Shown: one piece after another, positions 48,992-63,905 of the stretch
How positions within the stretch are numbered: position 1 is the stretch's first letter
Layout of the letters: each line of letters begins with the position of its first letter
Source: a virus
Lineage: Duplodnaviria > Caudoviricetes
Virus record (IMG/VR): IMGVR_UViG_3300032038_009890
Span: 64,001 to 128,000 of that record
Reading direction: 5' to 3' (one strand)
DNA length: 64,000 nt
Notes under the pieces: generated by a model
Databases searched by the model: none
What the model was told of the DNA's origin: nothing
The model's input: the letters and a program-made list of their open reading frames with translations, nothing else
Program-made: the position numbers and the translations under genes

Positions 48992-51211
48992 TCATTCATA
49001 GTTTTCATAAAACTTATCCCGTAAAGTAATAATATCTAGTCCAAGCAGACTTTCTTTATCTTCCGTCTCGTCATACATCTTGCGAAGGAAACCATAAAAC
49101 TTATTATCAAGCTCATTGATCAACTGCCCAGTGCCCTCGATGTATCCGCGCCGAAGAGTAGTGCTTGCAATACTCCTCATGCGTTTCCAAAAATTATAGT
49201 ATTCGGTCTTAACTTTAAACATCAAATTTCCAGAGTCCTCAACGACAAAGCCTTCTACATATTCTCCAAGAAGTTTATATCCCTGCTTCTGTACCGCGCT
49301 ATACCACTCACAGAATTCTTCCCAATTGGTGATATTACATACCTTGCGTTTATGTGTTAATCCAAACTTAACAGCAAGGTCAACCATATCATTATAAGGT
49401 AATTTGTTAAACACAATATCATTCTTTACAATGTCAAGCAAAATGATATTATGATTCAAATATTTAATGATATGCGGGTCCTTCTCAGAATCTTCCACTT
49501 CAAATACGAAAGTACAATCATTATCTTTCAGATACTGAAGAATATTCTTACGAGCATCTTCTGTAGTTACCTCAAAGAAAATCTCCTTAAACCATCCTGC
49601 ATACTCTCCTCCTACCATAGATTTGGTACAGTAACGGAAATCATCTGCATACTCATCATATGAGAGCATTCCAAGGAATCCATTTTCTTTTACATATACA
49701 GATATTGGATACTTAATTACATCCTTTAATTCAGCAAACGTAGGGCAAATAGTACCATCTAAATAGGACATTTTCAAATATCCACGTGCACATACTTTGA
49801 TTCTATTTAGATCGATGAATAATCCTCTCGCATGGACTGTTAAATTATTCCAAATACCTTTCTTAAATGCATCACTTGAAAAGTTAAATGAGCTAATATT
49901 ATTCTCAAATTTCTTCTCGTGGATATACTTACTCGCTCTCATGTCAAGAACAAGCTTCGCCAAATCACTGGAGTTAAGCGCATTCTGAAGCTCGAACTCT
50001 TCTTTCTTACGGAATACCGTATTCTTAATCTCAATCGGCTTAAAGCCTTCGTGATCAAGCTCAACTACACGCAAACATCCGCCAAATTCAACCCTACCCT
50101 CCAGATTAAATACATGCGGAGTCACATGAATCTCAGATGCCTGTGTATTCCTGTGTCCGAAAATCTGATAAACTCCTCCAGACTTTTCTTCCCATGCGTT
50201 AGCCACGTCCAGATAATCTTCATATCTCCCAACACCCTTAATCATCTGCTCGGATGCGACTAAAGTCACGTTCTCGGGCATAAAAGAAATACCTCCATGA
50301 CAAACGAAGACTTCTTTATCATGGAATTTATACCAAGCACACTGAACAAGCTTATAATACAATCTGCTCAAATCTTTCTTATCAAAGTTGGCACTGTTCA
50401 GCTGATTCTTAGTCACCCATTCAAATTCACGGGACTTTGCAGGAATGTCATGTGCATAATTGTATATTGACACCTCATGGTTACCTGTTAGTAGTAATAC
50501 ATTTTTCTTATCTTTAATTTCAAGAAGATACTTAAGTACCTCAACATTCTCAACACCACGATCAAGATAGTCACCTAAAAAGATATAAAACACGTCATCT
50601 TCTAATTGACCGTGAAGATACTTCTGCAATACCGTATAACATCCATGCACATCTCCAATATGCACAATTTTCCGATAGTTAGACAGATCAATAGGTTTAA
50701 GCCAAATCTGTTCAATGTCTTCCCCTGTGACATTGCACGGGTCTTTAGGTTTAATCACAGTAATACCAGACGGCACTTTCTGCGTCTCAAACCGCGCATA
50801 CATTTTGTCATCTACGTCATCGGGAACCCTTTTAAGTTCCTCCCTCTGCGCATTCCGTGCTTTACATACATCAATCGGAATGCCAGTTAAATCAAGCAAA
50901 TAAATCCTATACCTATATTTAGACGCAAGATTCTTATACTTATTCATCTCTTCTGATTTAGAATTCGTTGCATCAATTACAGTAAACTCCCCTGCTTGCA
51001 TACGAATCTCTAAAAGCTTAAAGAGCATATCCCAGACCACTTTTTCATGACTAAAGCCAATCTGTACGGAGCCATTTGTGGTCTGTTGAGGAGACTGGCA
51101 CAGCATACGTATTTCATCTGCGCACAATCGATAATTTTCTAGTCCAAGCTTCCTGATAATGGTACTTTTCCCCGCTCCAGGAGCGCCTCTAAACAATAAT
51201 AATACTCTCAA
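48992..51211 (-). CDS. Polynucleotide kinase-phosphoesterase-RNA ligase fusion (Pnkp/Rnl1-like)
   Basis: GAPGAGKS kinase; GDVHG/GDYLDRG/GNHE phosphoesterase; KENG, EGFV, FKVKT ligase motifs. Start inferred at TTG overlapping the upstream stop. Confidence 0.88.
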   Translation of the reverse strand: MRVLLLFRGAPGAGKSTIIRKLGLENYRLCADEIRMLCQSPQQTTNGSVQIGFSHEKVVWDMLFKLLEIRMQAGEFTVIDATNSKSEEMNKYKNLASKYRYRIYLLDLTGIPIDVCKARNAQREELKRVPDDVDDKMYARFETQKVPSGITVIKPKDPCNVTGEDIEQIWLKPIDLSNYRKIVHIGDVHGCYTVLQKYLHGQLEDDVFYIFLGDYLDRGVENVEVLKYLLEIKDKKNVLLLTGNHEVSIYNYAHDIPAKSREFEWVTKNQLNSANFDKKDLSRLYYKLVQCAWYKFHDKEVFVCHGGISFMPENVTLVASEQMIKGVGRYEDYLDVANAWEEKSGGVYQIFGHRNTQASEIHVTPHVFNLEGRVEFGGCLRVVELDHEGFKPIEIKNTVFRKKEEFELQNALNSSDLAKLVLDMRASKYIHEKKFENNISSFNFSSDAFKKGIWNNLTVHARGLFIDLNRIKVCARGYLKMSYLDGTICPTFAELKDVIKYPISVYVKENGFLGMLSYDEYADDFRYCTKSMVGGEYAGWFKEIFFEVTTEDARKNILQYLKDNDCTFVFEVEDSEKDPHIIKYLNHNIILLDIVKNDIVFNKLPYNDMVDLAVKFGLTHKRKVCNITNWEEFCEWYSAVQKQGYKLLGEYVEGFVVEDSGNLMFKVKTEYYNFWKRMRSIASTTLRRGYIEGTGQLINELDNKFYGFLRKMYDETEDKESLLGLDIITLRDKFYENYE

Positions 51212-51561
51212 AAAGCACTGCCTTCCCACCCGCATTCAAAGCATTTATAAATATGCTGTGGCGGATTTGTCATTAGTAATTGAAATTCATTACGATATAT
51301 GCGATTTTTACATATAGGACATTCAATCTTTGTATACATCCATTCCACTGGATTATTGATTGTATCATTCCTAAACTGAATATACTTATCCCACTCTATC
51401 ACCATCACCTCCCTTTAGTTCATTTATCAAGATATTAGACAATAAAGAGCATAATTTTCTTTCTGTTTTTGATGAATCAACACGCACAGCCATAGCAAAC
51501 AGGGTTTCATATACTCGCATAGTTGTTTTAAATTCGTCACTACTCATTTGTTTCTCCAACT

Positions 51562-55403: not shown

Positions 55404-56294
55404 TTAATGTGCATATACATCTGCGTTGTGCAGAATCATAACGTCATCATAGAACTCAGTTCCGTATCTCTTAATAAATTTTCTTTCAGCCTTTTCATCA
55501 CCATTCCAGAAATATGGGTCCATATGATGGCACACAAGATTACTTACATATAGCGTATCAGCGTTATACTTTTCGCAAGCAAAGAATAATGTCTCATAGC
55601 CGCCCACATTATGATGATAATAGTAATGCACTCTTAAATCATCATCATAGCTCTTTGTATACGGTTTTCCGCAGTCATGTAATAATGATGCAACTGCTAC
55701 AGATATATCAGTATCCTTTTCACCCACATGTAGATAATGATTGTACACGTGATGAAACGTCATTGACAGATGCCTACCAAGCGAAGCAGTGTGATGCTTA
55801 GACTCCTGATTATATTGATCTAAAAAGAATGTCAGATCTGTGGGGTCTCCATTGGAGGTCATCCACTCGGACCTGTCGTAATGTATCCAAATCTCATCCC
55901 ACCCCTCCCAATAGCCGGGGGTATACCAAGATTCATAAGCCTCTTTGACGTGTTTCATTTCTCCAGAAAAGTTTTTACAGCAAATATTATAAGGTGTTGC
56001 AATGATAATGCAGATTTTATATACATCATTAAAACTGCCGACAACATTGTTAATTAGATACCTACGGCTCTTTTCTTTTACATTTGAAGCATCGACAACA
56101 CAATCACTGCCGCATGATATTATTGCCTTTATCTTATCATAATATTTATTGTATACTACTGTTTCGTCGGTGATTCCCTGATCATTTAATTTTTTCCTTA
56201 TATCACCAATTGATACAACCTCAGCCCCAATAGTACCTGCATAGGCACTTTTCCCAGAACCCGGAAGACCCACCATAGCATATAATTTAGGCAT
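55404..56294 (-). CDS. P-loop kinase (AAA_33) fused to HD phosphohydrolase
   Basis: MVGLPGSGKS, VVDASN; HH...H...LLHDCGK...HH...HM...AD. Confidence 0.85.
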   Translation of the reverse strand: MPKLYAMVGLPGSGKSAYAGTIGAEVVSIGDIRKKLNDQGITDETVVYNKYYDKIKAIISCGSDCVVDASNVKEKSRRYLINNVVGSFNDVYKICIIIATPYNICCKNFSGEMKHVKEAYESWYTPGYWEGWDEIWIHYDRSEWMTSNGDPTDLTFFLDQYNQESKHHTASLGRHLSMTFHHVYNHYLHVGEKDTDISVAVASLLHDCGKPYTKSYDDDLRVHYYYHHNVGGYETLFFACEKYNADTLYVSNLVCHHMDPYFWNGDEKAERKFIKRYGTEFYDDVMILHNADVYAH

Positions 56295-60069: not shown

Positions 60070-60208
60070 TACTCCCAGTTGGATTCGGACCAACGACACA
60101 CGGCTTAATCCTCGCTACTGGTTCTGCCCCAGTATTTCGAATTGCGTTTTCCTTAGTTAAACTAAGCGAAGTAAGGCCGCCGCTCTAACCTGACTGAGCT
60201 ATGGGAGC
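60070..60208 (-). tRNA. tRNA (possibly Ile-TAT-derived) interrupted in the anticodon loop by a nested tRNA-like element
   Basis: GCTCCCA/TGGGAGT, canonical D arm, GCGGC/GCCGT stem, GTTGG-TCCGAAT-CCAAC; 62-nt insert at 60110-60171. Confidence 0.75.
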
Positions 60209-61264: not shown

Positions 61265-61378
61265 CGCATGGGACAGGGATCGAACCTGTATCTTTCGCGG
61301 GACAGGCGATATAATATTTGCTGATTATGACTATTGCTAGCCACGTTTTAACGTTCTAACCAATTAAACTACCCATGC
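61265..61378 (-). ncRNA. tRNA-Asp(GTC)-like scaffold with a permuted module inserted (copy 3)
   Basis: GCATGGG/CCCATGC, D and T arms, TCGC-CTGTCCC-GCGA; insert AAC-GTGGCTA-GCAA-TAGTCAT-AATCAGCAAA. Confidence 0.7.
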
Positions 61379-61584: not shown

Positions 61585-63114
61585 TTAGATAATCCCTTTC
61601 AGCGCCGCATCAACGGCGTCATACCGAGGACTGTTAATAGTATCAAGTAAAACATCATACGGGTCCATACGATCACTCATGACCATCCGCAGAAGCTGAA
61701 CAGAAAAACCAGAGCAAAGTACAAGACCATTTTCATTTTTCTGCATCGGCATCGTCTTATCTACTTCTCCAGAGAGATTCCAGAAGATGATGCGAGGCAG
61801 TTTATATCCATGCATCTGATATTTACGAGAAATACTCTCAAAAATTGTATTAATCCTAGAAGGTGCATATACAGCTTGGTTAAACTGCATATCACTAAGG
61901 ATAATAACTCTGCTCGGCATCTCATCCTGCTTATAGCCATTACTAATAGCTGTTTGCAGAATAAGGTCCATCGTTTTCTCAATATCAGTATCTGCCACCT
62001 CGGAATGCTTAAAGAAATACTCGATCTTTTCGCGGAGGCTATTGCAGTTACTCAGGTCAAAAAACTTCGGCCTATTGGAAAAAGAAAGTACAAGATTTTT
62101 CCAATCGTCGCTGTTATGCTCCGACGTATAAACAGACAGAGCAATCGCAACATCAAAAGGTCTAACCTTAGTACGGTATCCAGGCTCACACATCGAGGAT
62201 GAGGTATCACATACTACAAGAGTATCTCCAATCCCCATCTGCGGCAATGCCTTCCACAGCTGTTCTAGCGTCTCATCATACGCATTGATGTTTGGCCTAT
62301 ACCAACTATAGCCATAGTTGATATAGCTATTGACGATCTCATGAGGCTGAAGCACACCTGCATTGATTTTAGTCTCTCCCTTTGTTAGCGACTGCAGATA
62401 AGTTGCGCGCCTCTCTTCGTCATGCCGCATAAAGGCCTTACCATAAATCAGGTTTGCCCTAGACGGCACAGCAGAGTAGTTGATCTCGCCCCATTTCTGC
62501 GCAGACATCTTTGACTCGACCAGATCGAGCGTCTTCCGCATGGCAGAAATCTTTTTTCTATACCTTGCAGGAGTAATGCCCCAAGCGTCAATAAAAATCC
62601 CTGCGTAACGTTTCGTCTCACGCGAAGATGCGACACAGCTAGGAAGCCACTTAACTAGTAAGCTGATCGGCTTACCTTCCTTCAGCGCTTCATAGTCCTT
62701 GTCAAGCTGAACGCCAACAAGGTCAATCACATCCTGCTTGAGCGGAGTATCCAGAAACGGCCATAGATCCTTCCATCGCCCGTACTCAGGGAATAGTGGA
62801 AGCAGTGCCTTAACCACGGCAGGACGATTTTCGACCAACCACTGCATACAGGTGATAAATGTCCTTCTCTCGCCCATGCCTTCACGACAGTCACGTAAGA
62901 AGAACAGGTATTTTACACCAACATGCGGATCCTCATAGAATGCCGCCTGATACATGTTGGCAATGTACTCTTCACTCTGCTCACGTAGTCCAGTCGTTGC
63001 GAAGTTAAAATCTAATAGCGCATGACCAGATGACTCATAGGCCAATGCACCGTTTTCAGTCAGCGTCTTCTGCTGATTCAGCTGACTTTTTAAACCAGTA
63101 GCAAACTTATTCAT
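61585..63114 (-). CDS. DUF2828-family protein (TROVE-like helical domain + vWA; Ro60-like)
   Basis: TENGA, LLDF, FFLRDCREGMGERRTF, YGRWKDL, KWLPS, YSAVPSRA, CDTSSSM MIDAS, ILSDMQF, IFWNL, SGFS; start at ATG 63114 after SD. Confidence 0.88.
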   Translation of the reverse strand: MNKFATGLKSQLNQQKTLTENGALAYESSGHALLDFNFATTGLREQSEEYIANMYQAAFYEDPHVGVKYLFFLRDCREGMGERRTFITCMQWLVENRPAVVKALLPLFPEYGRWKDLWPFLDTPLKQDVIDLVGVQLDKDYEALKEGKPISLLVKWLPSCVASSRETKRYAGIFIDAWGITPARYRKKISAMRKTLDLVESKMSAQKWGEINYSAVPSRANLIYGKAFMRHDEERRATYLQSLTKGETKINAGVLQPHEIVNSYINYGYSWYRPNINAYDETLEQLWKALPQMGIGDTLVVCDTSSSMCEPGYRTKVRPFDVAIALSVYTSEHNSDDWKNLVLSFSNRPKFFDLSNCNSLREKIEYFFKHSEVADTDIEKTMDLILQTAISNGYKQDEMPSRVIILSDMQFNQAVYAPSRINTIFESISRKYQMHGYKLPRIIFWNLSGEVDKTMPMQKNENGLVLCSGFSVQLLRMVMSDRMDPYDVLLDTINSPRYDAVDAALKGII

Positions 63115-63128
63115 TACATTTTCCTTTC

Positions 63129-63209
63129 TAGACGCACAAATTTGATGGATTTGAACCATCTTAAAACACGTATGTTTTGTTATCCAGAATATTTTGCTGT
63201 ATGCGTCTA
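63129..63209 (-). ncRNA. ACAGCAA-module RNA with T-arm (copy 6), directly 5' of the DUF2828 SD
   Basis: TAGACGCA-TACAGCAAAA...GATGG-TTCAAAT-CCATC...TGCGTCTA. Confidence 0.75.
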
Positions 63210-63212
63210 TAA

Positions 63213-63331
63213 TCGAGAGAGGAGGAATTGAACCTCCGCTTGCGGACCCAAGGCGTCATAAATTTGCTGTTAGTGACTATTAAAGTCACGTTATAGACAT
63301 TTCCGCCGTACTACCACTATACCATCTCCCG
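63213..63331 (-). ncRNA. tRNA-Pro-like scaffold with a permuted module in the anticodon arm (copy 7)
   Basis: CGGGAGA/TCTCTCG-A, GCGGA/TCCGC, GGAGG-TTCAATT-CCTCC; insert AAC-GTGACT-TTAAT-AGTCAC-TAACAGCAAA; TTGGG remnant. Confidence 0.75.
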
Positions 63332-63843: not shown

Positions 63844-63905
63844 ATAGGACAGGAGGAATTGGACCTCCATCTGTCGAAACCGCTCTACCATTGAGCTATG
63901 TCCCA
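63844..63905 (-). ncRNA. Anticodon-less tRNA-like RNA
   Basis: TGGGACA/TGTCCTA, TAGCTCAATGGTAGAGC, GGAGG-TCCAATT-CCTCC; anticodon arm reduced to GT-TTCG-AC. Confidence 0.75.

Follow-up and report, generated by a model that had tools for sequence, protein, structure and literature searches.

A tRNA-shaped insert in the anticodon loop of a phage tRNA-Ile(UAU) gene as a probable intron of a barely described kind

The window analysed here, a stretch of 64,000 nucleotides (nt) corresponding to bases 64001-128000 of the 217-kb IMG/VR phage record IMGVR_UViG_3300032038_009890, carries on its minus strand (60070-60208) a tRNA-Ile(UAU) gene whose anticodon loop is interrupted by 64 nt that fold like a tRNA without an anticodon arm. 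Comparison with related phage sequences establishes that the fold is nested and conserved, which tRNA the outer one is and exactly where it is interrupted, and that relatives include intron-less alleles; the insert is probably a spliced intron of some kind. In the pathway proposed here, RNase P and an RNase Z-type endonuclease would excise the insert as a tRNA mimic, and a phage ligase of the Rnl1 family would reseal the exons, a full mechanism that we regard as evenly poised between right and wrong. Genes of this kind are barely described in the literature and unexplained, and the present copy is a variant without CCA or anticodon arm, with a non-canonical T loop, located beside a Ro60-like system.

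Anatomy of the interrupted gene

The Rfam tRNA model (RF00005) matches the minus strand of 60070-60208 end to end (48.9 bits, cut-off 29, model positions 1-71), with an alignment that skips 67 nt inside the anticodon loop. The outer gene has a normal acceptor stem, D arm, anticodon stem of 5 base pairs (bp; GCGGC/GCCGT), variable loop, T arm and A73. As encoded, its anticodon loop reads CTTA, 62 nt and ATTAA, which makes 71 nt and not a contiguous 7-nt loop; the 7-nt loop CTTATAA arises only after removal of 60171-60108. ARAGORN misses the gene in its default mode, and its intron mode returns a tRNA-Asn(ATT) with a misplaced intron. The parts of the gene, in window positions, are as follows.

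60070-60208, minus strand: whole interrupted tRNA-Ile(UAU) gene, 139 nt, with no encoded CCA.
60172-60208, minus strand: 5′ exon, 37 nt, with the acceptor 5′ strand, the D arm, GCGGC and loop nucleotides CTTA (positions 32-35); uninterrupted tRNA-Ile(UAU) relatives match it in their 5′ part.
60108-60171, minus strand: predicted intron, 64 nt, made of a 62-nt tRNA-shaped element and a 2-nt tail AT; the sole excision giving CTTATAA.
60165-60171, minus strand: 5′ strand CTTCGCT of the intron acceptor-like helix, pairing with 60110-60116; compensatory changes at 7/7 pairs.
60146-60164, minus strand: spacer TA and D-like arm (GTTT, 9-nt loop, AAAC); homologues have GTTT/AAAC, GTGT/ACAC or GTTT/AAAT.
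60134-60145, minus strand: 12-nt linker replacing the anticodon arm; homologues carry a variable arm of 17-24 nt, and this copy has none.
60117-60133, minus strand: intron T-like arm, with a 5-bp stem ACTGG/CCAGT that covaries at 4/5 pairs and a 7-nt loop GGCAGAA (60122-60128).
60110-60116, minus strand: 3′ strand AGCGAGG of the intron acceptor-like helix, supported by covariation.
60108-60109, minus strand: intron tail as read from the strand, a discriminator-like A and one U, with no CCA.
60070-60107, minus strand: 3′ exon, 38 nt, with loop nucleotides TAA (positions 36-38), GCCGT, the variable loop, the T arm, the acceptor 3′ strand and A73.

Within the insert, the acceptor-like helix of 7 bp directly abuts the T-like helix of 5 bp, and both covary. 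The T loop, GGCAGRA, is invariant within the homologue family of this nested gene, and relatives with CCA-encoding tRNAs show N73-CCA or N73-CAA at the position of the intron tail. Taken alone, the insert has no Rfam match even at E ≤ 10 and is not called a tRNA by ARAGORN. The inner element, which no tRNA model matches, which lacks an anticodon arm and whose T loop is non-canonical, is thus not a bona fide tRNA, and the term tRNA-like rests on the dimensions of its helices and on homologues with a fuller cloverleaf. The preliminary description of this DNA had given the same coordinates and the same outer anatomy, which the Rfam match and the reading of the strand bear out. Its account of the helices of the insert and of a linker without anticodon stem also stands, while the tRNA-likeness that it attributed to the insert goes unrecognized by Rfam and ARAGORN when the insert is examined in isolation.

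Conservation of the double cloverleaf

The folding energy of this single sequence is only suggestive evidence for the nested fold, with z-scores of -1.7 for the whole RNA and of -2.5 for the insert (2 of 200 shuffles fold equally well). One sequence was therefore insufficient, given these modest values and a minimum-energy fold in which a competing CTTAG/CTAAG hairpin replaces the D-like helix, and relatives were collected for comparison. They were gathered solely through homologues of a neighbouring DUF2828 protein and through DNA patterns, and are referred to by locus numbers (L002 and so on). The loose DNA pattern gave mostly chance matches, of which 19 out of 123 passed a test for stems, whereas a pattern anchored on CTTA returned 8 matches in 596 Gb of bacterial and archaeal genomes, none of them with stems. 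A purpose-written scan for nested tRNAs was strict, and the mismatch-bearing cases that it missed were parsed by eye. Neither megablast against GenBank phages nor a locus search with single proteins found close relatives of the tRNA island.

Homologues of the whole nested unit were found in L002, in the group L034/L037/L039/L214 and in the group L142/L146/L205/L208/L209/L210. A covariance model built from them realigned 12 distinct sequences of about three lineages, in an alignment that is fitted to the model itself. All seven helices of the double cloverleaf are kept in the 12 sequences, with 99.5% of the cells paired, a proportion that falls to 36-49% when the partners are slid along the same alignment. 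Both sides of the pair have changed in 31 of the 37 pairs. Within the insert, this applies to 7/7 pairs of the closing helix, 4/5 of the T-like helix and 1/4 of the D-like helix, values not reached by any of 500 shuffles; in the outer tRNA, where 100% of the cells are paired, it applies to 7/7 pairs of the acceptor, 3/4 of the D stem, 5/5 of the anticodon stem and 4/5 of the T stem. Seven different versions of the closing helix were seen, all fully paired, and even near-identical sister contigs differ by paired double substitutions in the closing helix and the T stem of the intron. The maintenance of pairing, together with compensatory changes across the homologues, indicates that the double cloverleaf is under selection.

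These data also bear on the nature of the insert. The introns found in the anticodon loops of bacterial and phage tRNAs are classically group I ribozymes, which would speak for a self-splicing or self-cleaving ribozyme in this gene too. However, the insert has only 64 nt, no ribozyme or group I model of Rfam matches the insert (E ≤ 10) or the region (E ≤ 1), and the conserved helices are those of a cloverleaf, so that a ribozyme intron is highly improbable here.

Junction and identity of the outer tRNA

Three different 7-nt loops can be made from the flanks of the insert, with anticodons UUU, UAU or UAC. A metagenome scan for the joined exon ends, in which the middle base of the anticodon was left open as A or T, yielded 106 uninterrupted tRNAs with the same anticodon arm, and the loop reads CTTATAA in 105 of them. 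The best uninterrupted relative is identical to the joined exons at 64 of 75 positions, and the 26 nt in the middle of the joined exons also occur in uninterrupted relatives. Given the loop of these relatives, the gene corresponds to a tRNA-Ile(UAU) with an intron of 64 nt (60171-60108), and the comparison places the junction between anticodon positions 35 and 36. The junctions CTT + TTAA, for a tRNA-Lys(UUU), and CTTAC + AA, for a tRNA-Val(UAC), were rejected on the same 105/106 relatives. A looser relative of the outer gene, located at L006:13979-14067, is an uninterrupted tRNA-Ile(UAU) with an extra arm of 20 nt in its variable region.

Part of what had been predicted from the window alone agrees with these comparisons. 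The product guessed in the preliminary description, an isoleucine tRNA with the loop CT-TAT-AA, has the very loop of those 105 tRNAs, and the covariation of the insert, whose absence it had listed among the signs against its reading, is present (7/7 pairs in the closing helix, as part of 31/37 in the whole double cloverleaf). Its interpretation as a tRNA-shaped intron with an isoleucine tRNA as product is thus favoured over random decay by the comparative evidence, while the excision and sealing steps that it invoked are weighed below.

Intron-less alleles and other nested tRNAs

An intron-less version of the tRNA-Ile of L142, L146 and L208 is carried by L216 and L217, with exons that are 100% identical. 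The two alleles, which belong to a sister lineage of the present gene, differ solely by an exact indel of 72 nt that goes from the first base of the inner element through its CCA. Similarly, a threonine tRNA with loop CTTGTAA is uninterrupted in L216 and nested in L217 and L210. The Ile and Thr introns are present or absent independently of each other in phages whose flanking sequences share 90-99% identity, which suggests that the tRNA-shaped introns of those Ile and Thr genes were recently gained or lost.

The covariance model and the scan detected at least 8 other nested tRNAs (Lys, Thr, Leu, Gln and Ile) with the same excision arithmetic, when the inner unit is removed from its position +1 through N73-CCA (CAA in two lineages). 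After such an excision, the nested Ile genes would give CTT + ATAA or CTTAT + AA, the Lys genes CTT + TTAA or CTTT + TAA, the Thr genes CTTG + TAA, the Gln genes CTTT + GAC, and the Leu gene CTT + AAAA, in an outer tRNA with the long variable arm expected of Leu. In each gene the joined loop would measure 7 nt, carry U33 and hold a purine at position 37. Across the class, the outer loop is interrupted after position 34, 35 or 36, whereas the excision tracks the inner ends, which suggests that the cut sites follow the inner element and not the outer tRNA. Moreover, the inner unit copies the 3′-end convention of its own genome, with CCA where the outer tRNAs encode CCA; no CCA is encoded by the inner units of this copy, L002, L004 and L005, and in this copy and L002 it is also missing from the outer tRNAs. 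In L053:7142-7292 and L065:7133-7283, a tRNA-Ile(UAU) houses a complete tRNA, with CCA, a canonical T loop and the anticodon CUA, which ARAGORN calls on its own and which is in effect an amber-suppressor tRNA carried as an intron.

The inner unit of the present gene also has relatives of its own. The T loop GGCAGRA (in a wider definition, GGCAGNA) is the signature of a family of inner units, with members in Ile, Lys, Leu and Gln genes, and was found in none of 433 ordinary tRNAs of the related loci. The tRNA arrays of other phage contigs also contain cloverleaves that stand alone and share both D arm and T loop, but have normal anticodon loops. They were observed in L110 (2539-2609), L126, L130, L147 and L183, with the anticodon loop CTTGCAC and a G3.U70 pair; in L151 and L195, with CTTTGAC or CTTTGGA; and in L168, with ATTCAAC and the opal-reading anticodon UCA. 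All are perfect cloverleaves whose D loop lacks GG and to which ARAGORN is blind, and their features suggest cryptic tRNAs in which the elbow is altered. The present insert looks like a member of this GGCAGRA lineage in which just 12 nt are left of the anticodon arm. Rapid turnover or an exchange of the inner units is indicated by L034:7605-7754 and L037:7773-7919, where the exons are identical while the inner closing helix, the D-like helix and the middle arm differ, and the T-like arm alone is common to both, as if cassettes had been exchanged or the intron had evolved very quickly.

Such a mobility would also be expected if a selfish or decaying tRNA-like unit had simply killed the tRNA-Ile gene, with at most the inner RNA being released and the outer halves going to waste. 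The exact presence/absence polymorphism between near-identical phages, the identical exons with quite different inner units in L034 and L037, and the presence of one type of unit, with the GGCAGNA loop, in Ile, Lys, Leu and Gln genes all suggest mobility. However, a dead outer gene would not be expected to keep the pairing of its stems through compensatory changes in three lineages (acceptor 7/7, anticodon stem 5/5, T stem 4/5), nor intact loop halves in all three of them, and phages with DUF2828 proteins of just 45-61% identity still share the architecture. A mere insertion seems quite unlikely on these grounds, and splicing of the insert is retained as the preferred reading.

Proposed splicing pathway

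We infer splicing, and the enzymes that would perform it, from the arrangement just described. The pathway would start with a primary transcript that folds as a cloverleaf within a cloverleaf. Host RNase P would read the stacked acceptor-like and T-like helices and cut at the first base of the intron, leaving a 5′ exon that ends in CUUA with a 3′-OH. An RNase Z-type endonuclease would then cut next to the intron discriminator, in this case one base past it, so that the 3′ exon would start with pUAA. Meanwhile, the exons would be held together by the pairing of the outer acceptor and anticodon stems. Finally, a phage ligase of the Rnl1 family would seal the nick in the anticodon loop, producing a tRNA of 75 nt that reads AUA.

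RNase P and RNase Z leave 3′-OH and 5′-phosphate ends. A ligase of the Rnl1 type would fit the last step, because these ends are its natural substrates. A precedent for the excision is offered by the tRNA-like domain of YrlA from M. smegmatis, which RNase P cleaves and to which CCA is added (PMC4201824). Demand for the product also counts in favour of the pathway, since 21.6 of every 1000 codons of this phage are AUA; in the record, ARAGORN detects no second tRNA-Ile gene. No gene for a CCA-adding enzyme or an RNase Z-like protein was found in the phage record. The phage RNA ligase invoked in the preliminary description is indeed encoded in the window, in the form of a Pnkp-like fusion.

48992-51235, minus strand: candidate sealing enzyme, 747 amino acids (aa), with P-loop kinase, calcineurin-type phosphoesterase and T4 Rnl1-family RNA ligase domains (Pfam AAA_33, 1.4e-20; Metallophos, 1.7e-15; RNA_lig_T4_1, 4.8e-29).

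This fusion lies 9 kb downstream of the nested tRNA and is syntenic in the relatives L003 and L004. Among five other records of phages with nested tRNAs, three (one of them 100% complete) have Rnl1-family genes, a fourth has a weak Rnl2-like match, and the fifth, which is 58% complete, shows no match to Rnl1 or Rnl2. The Rnl1-type ligases of those phages are stand-alone proteins of around 375 aa, with no match to the kinase and phosphoesterase parts of the fusion.

Several observations weigh against this pathway. A canonical cut by RNase Z, right after the discriminator, would give the 8-nt loop CUUAUUAA, so that the isoleucine product needs a cut one base further on. Across the class, the tail measures 1 nt in L005, 2 nt in this copy, L002 and L004, and 4 nt in the genes of the CCA type, including the two lineages in which CAA replaces CCA, and no single simple rule accounts for these 3′ ends. 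Recognition by RNase P and RNase Z is an assumption, given the non-canonical T loop GGCAGAA and an insert that fits none of the tRNA models. The ligase of this phage is fused to end-healing domains that products of RNase P and RNase Z would not need, and its co-occurrence with nested tRNAs is weak evidence because RNA ligases are common in tRNA-rich phages. Lastly, the exact indels could correspond to the insertion of a mobile tRNA-like unit and not to splicing.

Some of these points would be better accommodated if the insert were a spliced intron removed by a different nuclease, of either the phage or the host, with the tRNA shape as a recognition handle or in some other role. End-healing domains like those fused to the ligase would then find a use, and a second protein, of 296 aa, with P-loop kinase (AAA_33) and HD phosphohydrolase domains is encoded at 55404-56294 (minus strand) and may be another RNA end-healing enzyme; the 3′ junction that is off by one from a canonical RNase Z site and the tails of 1, 2 or 4 nt across the class also fit such a nuclease. 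On the other hand, the splice sites track the first base and the 3′ tail of the inner element while their outer position varies (34/35, 35/36 or 36/37), as the processing of tRNA ends would give. The stand-alone ligases of the other nested-tRNA phages gave no match to the kinase or phosphoesterase parts of this fusion, and no candidate for the nuclease was identified. Removal by another nuclease is thus considered rather unlikely, as compared with excision by RNase P and an RNase Z-type enzyme.

A Ro60-like neighbourhood

The tRNA island that contains the nested gene also harbours, 1.4 kb from it, the DUF2828 gene whose homologues served to collect the relatives.

61585-63159, minus strand: DUF2828/DUF7788 gene (Pfam) with a Ro60 (TROVE + vWA) fold (AlphaFold model with a predicted local distance difference test score, pLDDT, of 80; Foldseek).

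The top 13 matches of the model among PDB structures in Foldseek are all Ro60/TROVE proteins (E from 8e-7 to 2.5e-4), whereas a sequence-profile search of the DUF2828 protein against the PDB gave no match, so that the Ro60 fold is seen by the fold search only. On either side of the DUF2828 gene, at 61265-61378 and 63213-63331 of the window (minus strand), lie interrupted tRNAs of a second and much commoner kind. In all, 114 of the 123 distinct interrupted tRNAs found in 88 DUF2828 loci have a tRNA scaffold in which a helix of the anticodon arm is followed by ACAGCAA(A/T)T. As the DUF2828 protein has the Ro60/TROVE fold, these scaffolds are probably analogues of Y RNAs. The insert of the nested gene was also considered as a member of this helix-plus-ACAGCAA module and rejected, because neither L002 nor the other homologues keep the resemblance (ACGCAAT).

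This setting gives some appeal to an unspliced RNA of 139 nt with two elbows, which would act as a decoy for tRNA-targeting defences or as a Y-RNA-like partner of the Ro60-like protein. The island is rich in tRNA-shaped RNAs with altered anticodon arms around the Ro60-fold gene, bacterial Y RNAs contain tRNA-like domains (PMC4201824), and both elbows are conserved. However, a decoy would have no need for loop halves that stay exactly those of tRNA-Ile(UAU), nor for the proper 7-nt loops to which the halves of the other nested genes sum. Furthermore, the insert lacks the module of the 114 Y-like RNAs that lie beside DUF2828 genes, no Y RNA or YrlA model of Rfam matches at the gathering score or at E ≤ 1, and sister phages do without the insert. 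The double-elbow RNA, which the preliminary description had offered as an alternative, is accordingly judged unlikely, although the unspliced precursor might act as such a decoy, and the splicing of a tRNA-shaped intron remains the preferred explanation.

Relation to known systems and significance

In positions 1-60000 and 180000-217075 of the record, which lie outside the window, the coverage by open reading frames (ORFs) is 0.85-0.98 if TAG is taken as a sense codon and otherwise about 0.4-0.5, while the window itself is mostly standard-coded. Regions that are open only with TAG as sense point to an alternatively coded jumbo phage, and the source genome fits a partly TAG-recoded one. Nested tRNAs have already been noticed in phages of this class. 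In Lak megaphages (Devoto et al. 2019, PMC6784885), 'enigmatic' tRNA introns were described, one of which, in a tRNA-Thr(TGT) with intron-less alleles, 'may encode a tRNA', and a 2026 survey (PMC13037316) indicated that tRNA introns of alternatively coded jumbo phages 'could encode another tRNA'. A literature search found no further description of nested or tRNA-shaped tRNA introns beyond these two reports. The present case is similar in the insertion of a tRNA-resembling element at the anticodon region, in the existence, in its sister lineage, of alleles with and without such an insert, and in its location in a large phage with TAG as sense. As in the Lak type, the insert sits in the loop of a complete tRNA gene, has its own acceptor-like helix and T-like arm, and its removal restores the loop of the relatives, whereas its end is a discriminator-like A and a U and not the N73-CCA tail that would close an inner unit starting at +1. 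Moreover, unlike the reported cases, the insert has no anticodon arm or CCA, carries the T loop GGCAGAA, is missed by tRNA finders and interrupts a tRNA-Ile(UAU) between positions 35 and 36. Neither report proposes an excision mechanism or includes an analysis of structure and covariation.

Comparisons with better known RNAs are partial. YrlA of M. smegmatis (Chen et al. 2014, PMC4201824) also has a tRNA-like module with an acceptor-like stem of 7 bp inside a larger non-coding RNA, near a Ro60 gene, but its flanks form a Ro-binding stem and are not religated, whereas the flanks here are two halves of a tRNA with no Rfam match to Y RNA or YrlA. The group I introns of bacterial, plastid and phage tRNAs share with the insert the location in the anticodon loop of bacterial-type tRNAs and a patchy distribution among relatives, but they are self-splicing ribozymes of at least 200 nt, whereas the insert, of 64 nt, has no ribozyme core or Rfam match. 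The protein-spliced introns of archaea and eukaryotes (EndA/Sen, with RtcB or Trl1; PMC4090602) would be similar in being short, in the anticodon loop, removed by proteins and joined by a ligase. By inspection, however, the bulge-helix-bulge of such introns (two 3-nt bulges and a 4-bp helix) does not occur in the present RNA, in which an internal loop of 4 nt/5 nt, flanked by the outer anticodon stem and the closing helix of the intron, contains both junctions; the junction of the former is at 37/38, with cyclic-phosphate and 5′-OH ends, and that of the latter at 35/36, with 3′-OH and 5′-phosphate ends expected.

In the repair of PrrC breaks by T4 Pnkp/Rnl1, and in bacterial Pnkp systems (PMC3400036; PMC7824862), a nicked anticodon loop is closed by a ligase of the Rnl1 family, and a similar fusion is encoded by this phage; those breaks are damage by host nucleases, whereas the nick would be here a programmed step of tRNA maturation. 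Finally, mascRNA from MALAT1 and similar RNAs are tRNA-shaped elements excised by RNase P and RNase Z, as proposed for the insert, but their flanks are not rejoined and their host transcript is not a tRNA, as the outer transcript is here.

A tRNA-mimic intron that directs its own excision by RNase P and an RNase Z-type enzyme, followed by resealing by a phage Rnl1-type ligase, would represent a third, so far undemonstrated way of tRNA splicing, a possibility that we advance tentatively and at slightly less than an even chance. If true, the maturation of selected tRNAs for A-ending codons (Ile UAU, Lys UUU, Gln UUG, Thr UGU and Leu UAA) would depend on a phage ligase, and a second small RNA could be released from the transcript, which in some phages would be an amber-suppressor tRNA. 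Splicing would then be built wholly from universal cell enzymes and a repair ligase, giving phage RNA ligases a routine biosynthetic role beside repair, and the supply of tRNAs in TAG-recoded jumbo phages would become conditional on the expression of phage genes, which bears on the timing of the code switch. In any case, standard tRNA finders miss or mis-assign such genes, so that inventories of phage tRNAs, and the arguments on codon usage that derive from them, are biased.

Other features of the record and of related loci

The window has a G+C content of around 36%, and nearly all of its genes are on the minus strand. A block of high G+C content at 130-150 kb of the record consists of phage genes, with an integrase and GmrSD. 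Within the window, a further Rfam tRNA match of 62 nt (45.8 bits) at 63844-63905 of the minus strand has its anticodon arm reduced to a stub. Among the related loci, a HEARO RNA (RF02033, 110.9 bits) was detected at L006:12459-12670, beside an RRXRR/HNH gene and downstream of the DUF2828 gene.

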